In this document: piece after piece, positions 30,361 through 61,300 of the stretch
Layout: each line of letters starts with the position of its first letter
Numbering within the stretch: position 1 is the first letter of the stretch
Source of the DNA: an uncultured Prevotella sp.
GTDB lineage: Bacteria > Bacteroidota > Bacteroidia > Bacteroidales > Bacteroidaceae
DNA length: 64,000 nucleotides
Assembly: GCA_900544825.1 (NCBI GenBank)
Contig: UQWP01000001.1
Coordinates: 15,881-79,880 of the forward strand
Reading direction: 5' to 3'
Position numbers and translations under genes: made by a program
The notes under the pieces: model-generated
The model's database searches: none
What the model saw: only the letters and a program-made list of their open reading frames with translations
What the model was told of the DNA's origin: nothing

Positions 30361-32802
30361 ATGGATAATAAGAGAAAGATCATTGCCCTTTTAATGGGAC
30401 TTTCGCTAGGAGGTCAGTCTGTCTATGCCCAAGGGTATAGTTGTGGCAACGTGTCTCTGTTTTGCTCGCCCGATACACTCAGGGGTGTTCAGATAGGTGC
30501 CTTTTCCAGTGTGGTTCGACAGCAGATGCGTGGTGTGAGTCTGGCTGGTATCATCAATTCGGTGGGCGATGACATGCGCGGCGTGCAGATATCAGGCGTT
30601 TCCAATGTGGTGAAGGGTGGCAATGGCGTGCAGTTGTCTTTATTTAATAATGTATCCAGTTCTCCGTTCCGCGGCGTGCAGCTGAGCGGACTTTCCAATG
30701 TTTCCATGGGTATGAAGAGAGGCTTGCAGATTGCTGCTGCCAACGTCAGCTCTTCCTATATGCGTGGCTTGCAGTTGGGTGGTTACAATTATGCTGATAC
30801 CCTGAATGGTTCTCAGGTTGGCTTGTTTAATGTTTGCCTTAGCCATCCTCGCGGTGTGCAGATTGGTATCATCAACTATAGTCGGGATACCGTAGCCCAC
30901 AAGATAGGACTGGTGAATGTGAACCCTAAGACGCGTATTGACTATATGTTTTATGGCGGTTCTGCTACCAAAGCCAATCTTGCCATCAGATTCCGCAACC
31001 GGAGTACGTATAATATCCTGGGTATCGGAACCCATTACTTTGGATTGGCTGAGAAGTTCTCTGGTGCCTTGTTCTATCGCATCGGTCAGTATTTCCAGTT
31101 GTCGCCTAAGTTCTCCCTGAGTGGTGATCTCGGATTCTATCACGTAGAATCATTCCAGGAACATTCGCAGGATAAGCCTGAACGGCTCTATTCGCTGCAG
31201 GCTCGCATCAATGCCGACTATCAGTTGGGCAGATATACCAGCGCCTTTGCCTCTGTGGGTTATGGCGATACCTATTATTATCATGGTGGCAGGTATCGCC
31301 GTCGTGCCATCGTAGAAGCAGGTTTGGCTGTGCGTCTCCAGCGAAATTCTTCTTTTACGGATATCTCTGCCAAGAAGGAGAACGAATATGATATGGAGGC
31401 ATGGAAGGAAGGTACAATCTTTGCCTTCGATGATCCGGAGCGACAGAAGAAGCATCCTTGGAAGGCTGCCCTGGAAGCTTTTGCCATCAATGTGGGTGTG
31501 CAATGCTTCGACCAGTTTGTGATGAACGAGGAGTTTGCCAAGATTTCCTTCCATAGCATCAAGCACAATATTGAAACGGGATTTGTCTGGGATAACGACC
31601 AGTTCTCTACCAATCTGTTTGCTCATCCATATCATGGCGGACTCTATTTCAATGCTGCAAGAAGTCATGGCATGAATTTCTGGGAATCGGTACCATATTC
31701 TTTCTGTGGAAGTTTGATGTGGGAGACCACCTGCGAGATAGAACCGCCTGCCATCAACGACCTGATGGCTACTACTTTTGGAGGTGTTGCCATCGGAGAG
31801 GTGACGCATCGTATGAGCAATCTGGTGTTTGATGACCGCCTGTCTGGTTTCCCTCGTTTCATGCGGGAATTTCTGGGCACCCTCATCTGTCCGATCAAGG
31901 GATTGAATCGAATCTTGAGTGGCGAAGCCTGGCGAGTGAGAGGCAAATATTATAAATATCACGATTACCAGCGCAGTCCTGTGAGCTTCTCTGCATCGGC
32001 AGGTTATCGATACCTCGCAGACAACAATACGCTGTTCCGTGGAGAGGGCAATCCATACGTCCGTTTCAATCTGGTTTATGGCAATCCGTTTGATGGTGAG
32101 ACCACCAAGCCATACGACTACTTCACATTGGATGCCACTTTCGGCTTGAGCAGCAACCAGCCTCTGATTACCGGTCTGCATCTTCTGGGAAGATTGTGGA
32201 GCGTACCGGTGGAGGTGAGCAAGGGCACGGAGATGGAGTTCGGTATCTTCCAGCACTTCAACTATTACGATTCGCAGCCGGTGAAGGATGGTACCAGTCT
32301 GGTGCCTTACCGCATATCCGAGGCAGCCTCTTTCGGTCCTGGCATCATCTACCGCTTCCCTCAGGTGGGCAATCTCACCAGATTTGAGCAGCGTGTCTTC
32401 CTGGATGGTATCCTGCTGGGTGGAAGTCTGACTGATTATTATAATGTGATAGACCGCGACTACAACATGGGTAGCGGTTATAGCGTGAAGGCCAGCAGTT
32501 TCATGGAGTTCGGCAAGGTAGCCACCTTCCAGATAGGTGCCGACTATTATCGCATCTTCACGTGGAAGGGATATGAGGGAAAGGATCTGGCGACGACCGA
32601 TCCGCTCTATCTCAACGCCCAGGGCGACAAGGGAAATGCATCTCTGCTGGTGCTGAATGCCCGCTTTGGTCTGGCGCTTTCCAATCGGCTGAACCTGGAC
32701 TTCAATGTGTCCAACTATTGGCGTGATACCCATTACTCCTATCATGATGATGTAACGTCTAAAACCTTTGATATGAGTCTGGGATTGCAATACAAGTTCT
32801 AA
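30361..32802 (+). CDS. Large secreted/outer-membrane protein: N-terminal ~13-aa RGVQxxGxSNV repeats + DUF3943-like domain + C-terminal beta-barrel-like region
   Basis: Signal peptide MDNKRKIIALLMGLSLGGQSVYAQ at 30361 (the ORF opens at 30226). Nine or more repeats (RGVQIGAFSSV, RGVSLAGIINSV, RGVQISGVSNVV, NGVQLSLFNNV, RGVQLSGLSNVS, RGLQIAAANVS, RGLQLGGYNYA, SQVGLFNVC, RGVQIGIINYS). Conserved block ...WDNDQFSTNLFAHPYHGGLYFNAARSHG... resembles DUF3943. C-terminus ends ...LGLQYKF. Confidence 0.65.
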   Translation: MDNKRKIIALLMGLSLGGQSVYAQGYSCGNVSLFCSPDTLRGVQIGAFSSVVRQQMRGVSLAGIINSVGDDMRGVQISGVSNVVKGGNGVQLSLFNNVSSSPFRGVQLSGLSNVSMGMKRGLQIAAANVSSSYMRGLQLGGYNYADTLNGSQVGLFNVCLSHPRGVQIGIINYSRDTVAHKIGLVNVNPKTRIDYMFYGGSATKANLAIRFRNRSTYNILGIGTHYFGLAEKFSGALFYRIGQYFQLSPKFSLSGDLGFYHVESFQEHSQDKPERLYSLQARINADYQLGRYTSAFASVGYGDTYYYHGGRYRRRAIVEAGLAVRLQRNSSFTDISAKKENEYDMEAWKEGTIFAFDDPERQKKHPWKAALEAFAINVGVQCFDQFVMNEEFAKISFHSIKHNIETGFVWDNDQFSTNLFAHPYHGGLYFNAARSHGMNFWESVPYSFCGSLMWETTCEIEPPAINDLMATTFGGVAIGEVTHRMSNLVFDDRLSGFPRFMREFLGTLICPIKGLNRILSGEAWRVRGKYYKYHDYQRSPVSFSASAGYRYLADNNTLFRGEGNPYVRFNLVYGNPFDGETTKPYDYFTLDATFGLSSNQPLITGLHLLGRLWSVPVEVSKGTEMEFGIFQHFNYYDSQPVKDGTSLVPYRISEAASFGPGIIYRFPQVGNLTRFEQRVFLDGILLGGSLTDYYNVIDRDYNMGSGYSVKASSFMEFGKVATFQIGADYYRIFTWKGYEGKDLATTDPLYLNAQGDKGNASLLVLNARFGLALSNRLNLDFNVSNYWRDTHYSYHDDVTSKTFDMSLGLQYKF

Positions 32803-50818: not shown

Positions 50819-50862
50819 TTTCGGTTTGCCTCGTATAGAAGAAGCAGGTTTGTTTTAAATAA

Positions 50863-50925
50863 TATACCCCAGAAAAGGTATAGTTAATCATATAGTTTGA
50901 TTAATTATACCTATTCGGGGGTAAT
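50863..50925. repeat. Two copies (one inverted, one direct) of the ~22-bp imperfect palindrome ATTATACCyTTTCGGGGGTAAAT, downstream of the hipT-like gene
   Basis: TATACCCCAGAAAAGGTATA (50863-50882) and ATTATACCTATTCGGGGGTAAT (50904-50925). Confidence 0.7.
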
Positions 50926-50947
50926 TCTTTGTATTTTCTACAGAATA

Positions 50948-51889
50948 TTATCTCAGTGCCATGACTCTGCTGAGAATCAGCTTTTTGTATTCCTTCTTCA
51001 TGCCATCAGGCAGGAAAGAGGCATCTATCAGGTCGAGCCATTTCACGATGGAGCGACGGAACTTCTTGGCGATGTTATTGATTACTTTCTCGCTGAGTCC
51101 CGATGCTGTCATCACCTTGATGAAATCTGATTTCAGAATCTTTCTTTTTCTTCCATTCAGTGTCAGGGCGAGTTCCTCGGTATCTTCTGGCATCACTATC
51201 TTCGTGCAGAGTAGGTCGTAGGCTGGGGTCAGACCATAGCCCAGTTTTCTGTTGTTATAGAGTGAGAAGTTCTTGAGGTGCATGTCGGCGTTGCCGGTAA
51301 TCCACGAGAAGATGACTACCTCCCAATAGTTCACAAGATCGAGCTGTGAGAAGGATGAATACTTTTTGATGAGTTTGGCTACCTGTTCGTAGGAACCTTT
51401 GTATTTGTATTCGGTAAGGCGCTCGGACAACTGGCACATATCCTCCATCGGTACTTTGGTTCCATCGTCCAGTCGGTCTATTCTTCGAGTGATGTAACAG
51501 AGTTCACCATCGGAAAAGCGTATCAGACTATGTGGAACCACGGCGATTTTGGCAGCTTCGGCGAGATGCATTGTGAGGTCTTCGATTTCGGGAAGACACC
51601 GATAGCGATCGGTCTGTGGCTTCAGGATGTATTTGCCCCAAAGTCCTACGATGGTAAATCGGGATGGTTCGTTCTTGCCGCCAGGGTTCACATCGAGCGA
51701 GAGTTTCGCCTGCACACCCGTGAGGGTGGTTTGTGCGCGCACTACCTGTTTAGCCAAGTCGCCTATTTCCTTTCTTACATAGGGTAGGACTGGGGCTTCC
51801 TTGGTGCCGAAGAGTTTCTTGGCGCAAGCAGGGTGGTAATCTACCTGTCCTGGCTTGAGCGGTTTATAGCAATATAGACATTTCTCCAT
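50948..51889 (-). CDS. HipA-family Ser/Thr kinase toxin, kinase (C-terminal) part only - HipT-like
   Basis: 313 aa. Gly-rich loop TLTGVQAKLSL, catalytic motif GNADMHLKNFSL (GNxDxHxKNxS), Mg-binding PAYDLL. Lacks the HipA N-terminal subdomain, which is encoded separately just upstream. Confidence 0.85.
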   Translation of the reverse strand: MEKCLYCYKPLKPGQVDYHPACAKKLFGTKEAPVLPYVRKEIGDLAKQVVRAQTTLTGVQAKLSLDVNPGGKNEPSRFTIVGLWGKYILKPQTDRYRCLPEIEDLTMHLAEAAKIAVVPHSLIRFSDGELCYITRRIDRLDDGTKVPMEDMCQLSERLTEYKYKGSYEQVAKLIKKYSSFSQLDLVNYWEVVIFSWITGNADMHLKNFSLYNNRKLGYGLTPAYDLLCTKIVMPEDTEELALTLNGRKRKILKSDFIKVMTASGLSEKVINNIAKKFRRSIVKWLDLIDASFLPDGMKKEYKKLILSRVMALR

Positions 51890-51910
51890 ATTTCTTTTTC
51901 CTTTCTAGTT

Positions 51911-52228
51911 TTATTCTACAGGGATTACGCTGACGGCTCCAATGCAATCCTTGCAGCAGGCGAGGAGGAGCGACATTCTATCCCGCTGGTTGATTTTCCA
52001 ACTGCTTTCTGCGATATTCAGCAGCCATCCTTCGGGTATCAGTCCATCGAAGAAGGGAAACAGCACGGTATCGTGGTAGGGCTCGTCGGATAGCGGGAGC
52101 GTCAGGCTTACGGCTTCCGCACCATCCGATGCCAGATATCCGGCATCATAGGCAAAGGTAAAGCCCGTCTCGTCTTCCGTCAGCAGACCTACGTATTGGT
52201 CGTAGAGATAAATTTTTCCTTGTTTCAT
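51911..52228 (-). CDS. HipA N-terminal subdomain-only protein (HipS-like antitoxin candidate)
   Basis: 105 aa. ...GLIPEGWLLNIA...LLLACCKDCIGAVSVIP matches the HipA N-terminal domain signature (LLPEG...GxDCxGA). 21 bp upstream of the kinase gene. Confidence 0.8.
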   Translation of the reverse strand: MKQGKIYLYDQYVGLLTEDETGFTFAYDAGYLASDGAEAVSLTLPLSDEPYHDTVLFPFFDGLIPEGWLLNIAESSWKINQRDRMSLLLACCKDCIGAVSVIPVE

Positions 52229-52240
52229 GGGATTCTATTT

Positions 52241-52447
52241 TTATTCTTTTTTGATAGGAACGGGACCGATTTCCTGACCGAAGAGGAGGAGAACCTGATT
52301 AACTTTGTCGAGTCGCAGCGTTTCCTTTCCCTGCTCCAGTTCTCTTACGAATCTGAGCCCTACGCCCGATTTCGCTGCTAAATCCACCTGTGTCAATCCG
52401 AATTGCTTGCGCATCTCCTTGACGTATGATGATAATGTATTGCTCAT
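52241..52447 (-). CDS. XRE-family HTH DNA-binding protein (HipB-like)
   Basis: 68 aa. MRKQFGLTQVDLAAKSGVGLRFVRELEQGK is a classic HTH_XRE. 12 bp upstream of the HipS-like gene. First gene of the three-gene operon. Confidence 0.75.
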   Translation of the reverse strand: MSNTLSSYVKEMRKQFGLTQVDLAAKSGVGLRFVRELEQGKETLRLDKVNQVLLLFGQEIGPVPIKKE

Positions 52448-52458
52448 ATATTATTTGT

Positions 52459-52706
52459 TTTATACCCTTTCGGGTAATATGATGATATCTATCTTATAGT
52501 ATTATACCCTATCGGGTAAAATGTATAATGTATAATATCGTATTATACCCTTTCGGGGGCAAATATACGAATAAAAAATGAAAATACCCCCGAAAAGGTA
52601 TAATTTATAATATCATTTAACAAAATTATACCTTTTCGGGGGTAAATCCGTAACGAATCCTTTGGGAAATAAAAAAAAGCGTAACGAACACCTTTTTCGG
52701 GTAATC
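52459..52706. repeat. Regularly spaced array of six copies (five direct, one inverted) of the ~22-bp motif ATTATACCyTTTCGGGGGTAAAT upstream of hipB-like gene; ~42-bp period
   Basis: Copies at 52459-52478, 52501-52520, 52542-52564, 52584-52604 (inverted), 52626-52647 and 52688-52706 (partial, inside the yidC terminator loop). AT-rich spacers. Confidence 0.75.
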
Positions 52707-52723
52707 CATTACGCTTTTATTTT
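52675..52723. terminator. Hairpin (AAAAGCGTAA ... TTACGCTTTT) downstream of yidC; loop contains the last partial copy of the 22-bp motif
   Basis: 10-bp stem with flanking A/T runs. Confidence 0.45.
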
Positions 52724-52736
52724 TATCTAGAAAACT

Positions 52737-60635: not shown

Positions 60636-60737
60636 AATTCAAATTTGTTTTTTTATGGCTGCAAAGTTAATACATTTTTGTGAGAAATGAAAGAGTTGTC
60701 CCGGATTTTTTCAGTCTTTGTCCCGGATGTTGTGAGG

Positions 60738-60908
60738 TAGGAAGGAATGGAAGAAGGGGAAGATAGGAGGGGAATGGGGGAAGGAGAGGAAGGGAAAAGG
60801 TGAAAAAGTGAAAGTGAAAAGGTGAATGAGGTGAATGGTGAACGAGGTGAATTTGATGAAAATGGTGTATGCAGCGAATTGCAAAAAGGTCAAAAGGTCA
60901 AAAGTGAC
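60738..60908. repeat. Purine-rich (plus strand) microsatellite-like block: GA-rich run, then GGTGAAA/GTGAAAG units, GGTGAAT units, AAAAGGTCA x2-GTGAC
   Basis: ggaaggaatggaagaaggggaagataggaggggaatgggggaaggagaggaagggaaaaggtgaaaaagtgaaagtgaaaaggtgaatgaggtgaatggtgaacgaggtgaat...aaaaaggtcaaaaggtcaaaagtgac. Confidence 0.8.
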
Positions 60909-61150
60909 TTTTCGTAAAAAGACGAAGGGTTGATGACTGGCTCTTGAATATCGTTGATGACAGGTTCTTGTATATTCATGTTGAAGATTTCTTCTATATA
61001 TAATTGTAGTACTTACGCGCGTACATTATTATATGGATTTTTAATAATTAATGGTATTTAATAATCTTAATCTTGGCATATTGATAATTATTATATGATA
61101 TTTAGGATTCGTCTCATTTCTGTTCTTTGAAAAATCACATTCGTAAATTC

Positions 61151-61300
61151 GGCAGATTCACCCAATTCACCATTCACCACATTCACCTTTTCACTTTCAC
61201 CTTCACTTTTTCACCTTCACTTTTTCACTTTCACCTTTTCGCTTTTGTCAAATGTGACTTTTGACCTTTTGACCTTTTGACCTTTTGCCCCTTTTGGATC
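61151..61300. repeat. Pyrimidine-rich (plus strand) block that is the reverse-complement counterpart of 60738-60908: ATTCACC x4, TTTCACC/CTTCAC units, GTCAAATGTGAC, TTTTGACC x3
   Basis: attcacccaattcaccattcaccacattcaccttttcactttcaccttcactttttcaccttcactttttcactttcaccttttcgcttttgtcaaatgtgacttttgaccttttgaccttttgaccttttg. Confidence 0.8.

Follow-up and report, generated by a model that had tools for sequence, protein, structure and literature searches.

A cluster of short imperfect palindromes surrounds a hipBST toxin-antitoxin cassette in a 64,000-nucleotide stretch of DNA (hereafter the window; contig UQWP01000001.1) whose source is the Segatella (Prevotella) copri complex, a gut bacterium. Our analysis suggests that the repeats upstream of hipB very probably constitute a phased operator array for HipB, the presumed repressor acting at these operator-like sites, in a Legionella-type HipBST operon. 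We favor an autoregulatory operator array because the sites combine symmetric half-sites, a free centre, orientation independence, fixed phasing, overlap with a promoter, and linkage to hipB, including at orphan hipB loci. HipB operator arrays as such are already known; what is notable here is the conserved 41-bp phase and a lineage-specific elaboration of the sites into hairpin pairs.

Palindromic sites upstream of hipB share a fixed geometry

To describe the sites across the family, we compiled 80 metagenome loci and 10 loci from viral contigs, in which HipB and HipT are 67–100% and 53–100% identical, respectively, to the proteins of the window. An initial HipB protein search was filled by relatives of more than 90% identity, and the diversity of the sample was drawn from the metagenome and viral locus scans. 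The regions upstream of hipB were collapsed into 36 lineages, 33 of which carry at least two sites (92 sites in total, two to four per lineage and five in the window). Their consensus is an 18-bp palindrome with a variable centre, TATACCC-N4-GGGTATA, which can equally be written TATACC-N6-GGTATA. Matches to the palindrome at the N4 spacing numbered 315, against 0.8 in shuffled sequences. Among 79 aligned N4 sites, the half-site positions hold 1.3–2.0 bits of information and the four central positions 0.4–1.2 bits, and the centre differs from lineage to lineage (GAAA, TAAA, AAAA, CAAA, ATTA, TTTC or AAAC). In the distal site the centre is TTTC in some lineages and GAAA in others, with the spacing unchanged; since these two centres are reverse complements, the exchange fits a symmetric dimer rather than an oriented element. 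Of 59 intervals between neighbouring centres, 54 measure 40–42 bp and 36 exactly 41 bp. The sequences between the sites are unrelated, and their length is nonetheless fixed.

The window itself holds seven good copies and one degenerate copy. A sequence-only reading had listed eight copies here and none elsewhere in the 64 kb, and our searches bear out both the positions and the absence: the full 23-mer with up to three mismatches gave five matches in the window versus none in 100 shuffles, and palindrome-pattern searches of the window returned, outside the locus, only one chance-level match each (at 30422 and 57029). Five good copies lie 5' of hipB. Counting from the start codon, these are site D2 (copy 3; 52461–52478, centre 52469.5, –22 from the hipB ATG), which sits between the putative promoter and the start codon, site D1 (copy 4; 52503–52520, centre 52511.5, –64), site C (copy 5; 52544–52563, centre 52553.5, –106), site B (copy 6; 52583–52602, centre 52592.5, –145), which is inverted relative to site A, and the distal site A (copy 7; 52627–52646, centre 52636.5, –189). 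Two further copies lie 3' of hipT, namely site A' (copy 2; 50906–50925, centre 50915.5) and the inverted site B' (copy 1; 50863–50882, centre 50872.5).

D2 and D1 have the short canonical form (TATACCCTTTCGGGTAAT and TATACCCTATCGGGTAAA, respectively; TATACC-N6-GGTAAT), whereas the other five copies are of a long form with two extra base pairs (TATACC-N8-GGTATA; TATACCTTTTCGGGGGTAAA in site A). The N8 architecture first proposed for the motif thus applies to the five long-form copies and not to the short copies or to the family consensus, which are N6. Likewise, the upstream copies had been described as a six-site array with a 42-bp period. A regular array is indeed present, but it consists of five sites with centre spacings of 42, 42, 39 and 44 bp, and the spacing typical of the family is 41 bp. 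The supposed sixth member (copy 8), a degenerate motif-like stretch at 52685–52706 (first delimited as 52688–52706), lies in the upper part of a terminator-like hairpin of yidC (52666–52727; –23.9 kcal/mol, z –3.8, with a U8 run after it). It lies 58 bp from the neighbouring site, out of register with the array, and its distance to site A differs among strains; it is probably not a functional operator.

Most strains lack site D1, which arose by duplication of a 41–42 bp unit and lies in a tandem repeat of period 41 (52460–52557); the window, L007 and a few other loci have one additional unit of this kind. The sites hardly vary within the S. copri complex, and the spacer between C and D varies freely in sequence at constant length. 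Site B is the least variable element among these loci. A comparison of constraint across A, B, C, A' and B' was weakly informative, with the A labels contaminated by the copy embedded in the yidC terminator.

One site is fused to a candidate promoter

In Bacteroides promoters, TAnnTTTG is the consensus of the Bacteroidetes –7 element. A candidate element of this type, TATATTTG, lies on the minus strand at 52560–52567 and is fused to site C, a promoter-associated candidate operator whose GGGGGCAAAT end supplies the TTTG of the box. The hip promoter was called by consensus match only, and in 27 of the 36 lineages such a box lies directly against a site. A scanner for sigma-70 promoters and terminators gave counts at or below the level of shuffled sequences; the promoter type of the host differs from the one it models. 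We also noted a second TAnnTTTG match, TAATTTTG, on the minus strand at 52621–52628, where it adjoins the inner end of site A. One T is missing from this position in other strains, and the match is probably not a conserved promoter.

On the protein side, the stretch KSGVGLRF.RELEQGK, save for one V/L position, is identical in six aligned HipB proteins that go with this half-site. The recognition helix is essentially invariant among the recovered homologues, so a contrast between helix and half-site is available only against Legionella, whose HipB has GVGKTVIYDIEKGK at the recognition helix and whose half-site also differs.

The operon resembles the Legionella HipBST module

The cassette is a minus-strand operon in the order hipB-hipS-hipT, in which the HipA kinase is split and the three genes are separated by gaps of 12 and 21 nt. 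hipB (52241–52447, minus strand) encodes a 68-residue helix-turn-helix protein (HTH_3, PF01381) of the Y4mF/couple_hipB family, scoring 83.1 bits against NCBIfam TIGR03070 (couple_hipB; cut-off 71.65). In a comparison with the PDB its best solved relative is Legionella HipB(Lp) (8ezt, E 2.7e-6). The hipS-like gene (51911–52228, minus strand) encodes 105 residues corresponding to the N-terminal subdomain of HipA (PF13657, E 3e-27; TIGR03071), and the hipT-like kinase toxin gene (50948–51889, minus strand) encodes a 313-residue HipA_C protein (PF07804, E 2e-46). The solved structures nearest to HipT are HipT(Lp) (8ezr, E 9.5e-52) and HipT of E. coli O127 (7ab3, E 1.7e-14). Because its closest solved structures are Legionella HipT and HipB(Lp), we classify the operon, on its sequence, as a Legionella-type HipBST toxin-antitoxin module; the HipBST(Lp)-type clade has been described as widespread in Bacteroidota (PMC10653801).

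The comparison with Legionella extends to the sites. Operators O1–O3 lie upstream of lpg2368-70 in Legionella pneumophila, and electrophoretic mobility shift assays have shown that three 18-nt sites, evenly spaced and overlapping the promoter, are shifted by HipB and by neither HipS nor HipT (PMC10653801). HipB of HipBST autoregulates transcription (PMC8262856). Reconstructed from the published oligonucleotides, the Legionella sites read TTACTG-N6-CAGTAA and lie 71 bp apart, centre to centre. The two systems have in common the hipB-hipS-hipT operon, the Legionella proteins being the closest solved relatives, several evenly spaced sites of 18 bp in a 6+6+6 layout, a proximal site that overlaps the promoter, asymmetry in some sites, and the absence of the motif elsewhere in the genome. 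They differ in the half-site (TATACC here, TTACTG in Legionella), in the recognition helix (GLRFVRELEQ versus GKTVIYDIEK), in the spacing (41 versus 71 bp) and in the number of sites (two to five versus three); here, moreover, the centre varies between lineages, and a site is fused to a Bacteroidetes –7 box, whereas the Legionella promoter is of the sigma-70 type. Inverted hairpin pairs and a duplicate downstream are additional features of S. copri. Finally, binding has been shown in Legionella, while the operator role proposed here is read from DNA sequence.

The sequence-only reading had likened the motif to the E. coli HipB operator. The E. coli K-12 hipBA operators O1–O4 have the form TATCC-N8-GGATA (Black et al. 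1994; Schumacher et al. 2009, 2015, as cited in PMC3920265). On NC_000913.3 they start at positions 2465, 2493, 2532 and 2560 of our locus L146, giving spacings of 28, 39 and 28 bp. The likeness is one of kind: a HipB-family, Cro-like helix-turn-helix repressor with palindromic 18-bp sites in its own promoter, and, as far as the cited account goes, four cooperatively bound sites with TA-rich outer bases and inner CC/GG, as in the half-sites of the window. The geometry is different. E. coli half-sites of 5 nt flank an N8 centre, against canonical half-sites of 6–7 nt around an N6 or N4 centre here; the spacing is 28/39/28 bp rather than 41 bp; and the window sites do not follow TATCC-N8-GGATA, an N8 centre occurring here only in the long-form variants of S. 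copri, with TATACC half-sites. E. coli hipBA is also bipartite, with HipB as the antitoxin, and no E. coli HipB chain, a distant relative, appeared among the structure matches of the window HipB. In layout, the sites match the Legionella TTACTG-N6-CAGTAA operators.

The upstream array accompanies hipB into unrelated contexts

We scanned one genome per species (185,579 species, 596 Gb) for exact occurrences of the long-form consensus ATTATACCYTTTCGGGGGYA. Only 55 stretches matched. With one exception they come from Segatella/Prevotella-type contigs, where they lie next to hipB or at the present locus; in 43 of the 55, a hipB homologue is found in the same 8 kb. The others comprise the opposite side of the same locus, edges of contigs or blocks, two cassette-free sites and one unrelated Firmicute match. 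This last (L055), the sole motif match without hipB, lies in an unrelated intergenic region between an ABC-ATPase gene and glyA that contains generic CCCC-GAAA-GGG hairpins, and was treated as chance. In each complete genome (3.7–4.2 Mb), all matches fall at a single locus. The genome-wide search proposed to separate a cassette-specific repeat from a dispersed one therefore came out on the side of cassette specificity.

In the 80 metagenome loci, no hipB homologue lacks a motif match in its locus, and the match almost invariably lies immediately 5' of the gene; upstream sites are present in all nine viral loci where hipB was found. Where cassettes occur in other contexts (L018, L046, L049 and L061), nucleotide homology runs from the hipT stop codon (50947–50949) to 52644–52648, a limit that coincides with the outer edge of site A. 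These comparisons point to an upstream array that belongs to the cassette and accompanies hipB homologues into unrelated contexts. Together with the promoter overlap, this agrees with the initial suggestion that the upstream copies are cassette-specific operators of the helix-turn-helix protein. Literature searches returned no earlier description of such sites in Prevotella, Segatella or Bacteroides.

Two side observations concern the assemblies. Contigs with a Segatella-type hipBST (L041, L046, L050 and L061) are filed in metagenome-assembled genomes labelled Lachnospiraceae, Sphaerochaetaceae, Bacteroides fragilis or simply 'bacterium', probably through binning errors or horizontal transfer. 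In several assemblies (L012, L015, L025, L028, L034 and L050) a contig end falls inside or beside a motif pair, suggesting that short-read assembly breaks off here because the pairs are nearly identical.

Inverted pairs bracket a variable island in S. copri

In the window, sites A and B form an inverted pair, of which A is the outer arm. The two 22-nt arms (52585–52606 and 52623–52644) are 100% complementary and fold into a hairpin of –36.9 kcal/mol (z –7.0), followed on the hip-sense strand by a U-rich run. Downstream, A' (the hipT-proximal half) and B' (the DUF1846-proximal half) form a hairpin of ~29 bp with a palindromic spacer (TTAATCA...TGATTAA), located between the convergent hipT and DUF1846 genes (minus strand, –29.0 kcal/mol, z –7.3; plus strand, –34.4 kcal/mol, z –7.2). 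Over both pairs, folding energies range from –29 to –37 kcal/mol (z about –6 to –7), and the hairpins end in U-rich tails. A'-B' is a lineage-specific paralogue of A-B, an inverted duplicate with a different spacer.

The repeats had been said to bracket the whole cassette. Two copies do lie downstream of hipT in the window, but this arrangement is not general: among loci with a complete hipT 3' end, sites downstream of hipT were found only at the S. copri yidC-DUF1846 locus and in L056, a separate lineage with two inverted sites 41 bp apart after the hipT stop codon, and in none of the other lineages examined. In S. copri the downstream pair adjoins the 3' end of the DUF1846 gene rather than hipT, and many strains have rhodanese, MNT/HepT or HicB-like genes between hipT and the pair. 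Four loci (L053, L077, L081 and L082) have an island at this position but no downstream pair.

Two species representatives (L014 and L035) lack the cassette and retain exactly one pair between yidC and the DUF1846 gene. The order at these empty sites is the yidC terminator, site A, the A-B spacer, a B/B' chimera and the DUF1846 gene. On the left, A and the A-B spacer correspond to the upstream pair; beyond the second site, the right-hand flanking sequence corresponds to that of B'; and the junction falls inside B/B'. Since the A-spacer-B unit travels with cassettes in other contexts, we interpret the empty site preferably as the outcome of a deletion between the direct repeats B and B'; an ancestral state is less likely. 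Whether repeats mark the junctions in strains lacking the cassette had been put forward as a check; they do mark the junction, as a single chimeric pair of the kind expected from such a deletion. The related proposal of terminal repeats of a mobile unit fits the data poorly, in that homology elsewhere ends with the hipT stop codon on one side and with the outer border of site A on the other.

Might the inverted pairs nevertheless be dedicated recombination sites, resembling att or attC, through which the hipBST island integrates and excises as a circle, and not primarily operators? Direct repeats of ~65 bp (50861–50927 and 52581–52648) do bracket the island, the empty sites keep exactly one pair with the junction inside B/B', and an inverted pair just after hipT recurs in the different lineage of L056. 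MNT/HepT, HicAB and rhodanese genes lie on either side of hipBST depending on the strain, always 5' of a pair, which is compatible with circular permutation. As with integron attC sites, palindromic units of ~60 bp bracket variable small cassettes and the empty site retains one unit. Unlike attC, however, these units come with no integrase, have no R''/L''-L'/R' core sites and do not occur between cargo genes, and cassettes elsewhere lack a second unit. Apart from unrelated IS110/DDE genes at the L002 edges, no recombinase or transposase gene was found within 6 kb on either side in ten loci. The upstream array occurs without a downstream pair in most other contexts, as does the island at this very position in the four loci named above. 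Dedicated recombination sites would also leave the single same-orientation sites, the fixed 41-bp spacing and the promoter fusion unexplained, and homologous recombination between repeats of 25–65 bp suffices for the sole deletion product observed. We therefore regard this explanation as improbable. The deletion product is seen in natural strains, and the mechanism that we infer for it requires no dedicated mobility machinery.

A composite idea, in which the inverted operator pairs serve as multifunctional 'bookends', seems to us equally doubtful. HipB dimers, bound both at the upstream array and at the downstream pair, would loop or insulate the 1.7–2.8 kb island and its cargo (MNT/HepT, rhodanese), and the hairpin-forming pairs would double as preferred recombination sites for excision and reinsertion without a recombinase. 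If true, this would be a repressor-bound, operator-delimited mobile toxin-antitoxin cassette.

Separately, we noted that the yidC-DUF1846 intergenic region (50819–52736 in the window; L001–L010 and L017–L092) is a mosaic cargo hotspot in the S. copri complex, with HicA-like/HicB, MNT/HepT, rhodanese and hipBST genes in orders and combinations that vary by strain. In six loci (L011, L047, L048, L063, L074 and L024) an orphan hipB has kept its operators but lost hipS and hipT, with a rhodanese gene directly after hipB. Solo hipB genes also occur in other settings. One of them (L132:2553–3400; 74% identical) has a module of a site pair and a –7 box both before and after the gene, each module followed by the same repeat, which resembles a miniature inverted-repeat transposable element (MITE); the upstream repeat, of ~390 bp, separates the promoter from the hipB start codon. 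Another (L031:4397–7252; 67% identical) has three motif copies and lies among genes of mobile-element type, judged by eye to encode an HU-like protein, an excisionase-like helix-turn-helix protein and a 454-residue primase/VirE-like protein.

The cassette is chromosomal, and its neighbours are yidC, a CTP synthase gene, the DUF1846 gene and a gene for a pyridoxal phosphate (PLP) enzyme; yidC and the DUF1846 gene, which flank the operon, are convergent. A composition profile gave no foreign-DNA signature, the GC content of the cassette matching that of its flanks. Elsewhere in the window, 60734–61296 holds dense, overlapping short tandem repeats, of the GGAGAGGAAGGG type on one side and of the TTTCACC/CTTTTGAC type on the other.

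Hairpins, dispersed elements and iterons

The copies might instead act mainly as nucleic-acid hairpins, the pairs as terminators or insulators and the single copies as stem-loops in the 5' untranslated region with UUCG or GAAA loops, without recognition by a protein. Each copy can form a stem-loop of the type TATACCYY-TTCG-GGGGTATA or TATACCC-GAAA-GGGTATA, and T/C variation opposite G in the S. copri copies is compatible with wobble pairing. The pairs, with their folding energies of –29 to –37 kcal/mol (z about –7) and the U-rich runs that follow, are consistent with such a role, and the downstream one lies between convergent genes, where a bidirectional terminator is expected. Several observations speak against this reading. 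The loop positions vary freely across lineages while the half-sites are conserved; the promoter-fused sites are asymmetric (TGYACCC...GGGTATA), which shortens the stem; and the strict 41-bp spacing, like the fusion to the –7 box, is a feature of the DNA rather than of RNA. The upstream sites, being located before the putative transcription start, would be absent from transcripts of the hip promoter, and in many lineages (L127, L013 and L016 among them) all sites have one orientation, so that no long hairpin can form. As an account of all the repeats, we consider hairpins quite unlikely.

The inverted pairs are a different matter. Like bidirectional intrinsic terminators, A/B and A'/B' (the latter at 50863–50925) are long, stable hairpins with T/U-rich flanks at gene ends. 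Unlike typical terminators, they have AT-rich stems of 22–29 bp, consist of two operator-like units and have loops of 7–16 nt. Activity as a hairpin terminator or insulator is plausible and would be the most likely role of the pairs, which may also bind HipB.

A generic dispersed element of the repetitive extragenic palindromic (REP), bacterial interspersed mosaic element (BIME) or MITE type, clustered here by chance, would likewise be a short imperfect intergenic palindrome found in both orientations, and some assemblies do break at the motif. Given that the motif is absent from the rest of the 64 kb, invariably goes with hipB or this locus, and occurs in 55 stretches of 596 Gb at one locus per complete 3.7–4.2 Mb genome, this is very improbable; the exact-consensus scan of genome contigs and the context of tblastn matches led us to reject a REP-like element. 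Lastly, direct repeats of ~20 bp at regular spacing are reminiscent of iterons, as once suggested, or of an origin-like array bound by a replication initiator, but the locus has no rep, dnaA or partition gene nearby, is chromosomal in all strains (between yidC/CTP synthase and DUF1846), shows no composition or skew anomaly beyond AT-rich intergenic DNA, and has palindromic units spaced at 41 bp, unlike typical 22-bp direct iterons, which makes this reading exceedingly remote.

Discussion

We return to the phased HipB operator array. One HipB dimer would bind each 18-bp palindrome, and a spacing of ~41 bp, roughly four helical turns, would place the sites on the same face of the DNA. With one site fused to the –7 box and, in this lineage, one or two more between the promoter and the start codon, occupancy of the sites would block RNA polymerase and result in autorepression of hipBST. 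The strict spacing might further allow cooperative contacts between adjacent HipB or HipBST complexes, although this is speculative. In S. copri the two distal sites are inverted and form a perfect 22-bp hairpin, with the paralogous pair at the far end of the variable island. The pairs, as direct repeats, probably served as substrates for deletion of the whole island.

Several observations weigh against this model. Contact between HipB and DNA is suggested by association and analogy, and a –33 element is not evident at the putative hip promoter. With distances of 39 and 44 bp to the adjacent sites, site B is out of phase by about 0.3 turn. In the long-form sites (A, B, C, A' and B') the half-sites are 2 bp wider apart than in the canonical form, and as a rigid dimer might tolerate this spacing poorly, these sites may be weak or act as half-sites. 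B' has variants in which the CC, elsewhere invariant, is disrupted (TATAAC, 13 of 47 loci). Within S. copri, moreover, the TTCG/CGAA centre is conserved beyond the need of a non-contacted spacer, and any palindromic site could also fold as a small hairpin. With regard to the pairs, their U-tracts are imperfect, and a simple terminator scanner does not call them, their stem and loop being beyond its limits. Lastly, the genome-wide scan covered the exact long-form consensus, and degenerate sites elsewhere, as part of a wider HipB regulon, are possible.

The sites provide a sequence-level operator model for HipBST(Lp)-type modules, namely TATACCC-N4-GGGTATA half-site pairs, 41-bp phasing and fusion to the –7 box. 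Such modules are widespread in Bacteroidota, and our paper searches found no operator described for them there. That the 41-bp spacing is strict over deeply diverged lineages hints at a higher-order assembly of HipB or HipBST on DNA. In natural S. copri populations, the operator duplicates appear to act as substrates for loss of the toxin-antitoxin island. This bears on strain-level variation of a major gut commensal; current understanding is not overturned by these findings.

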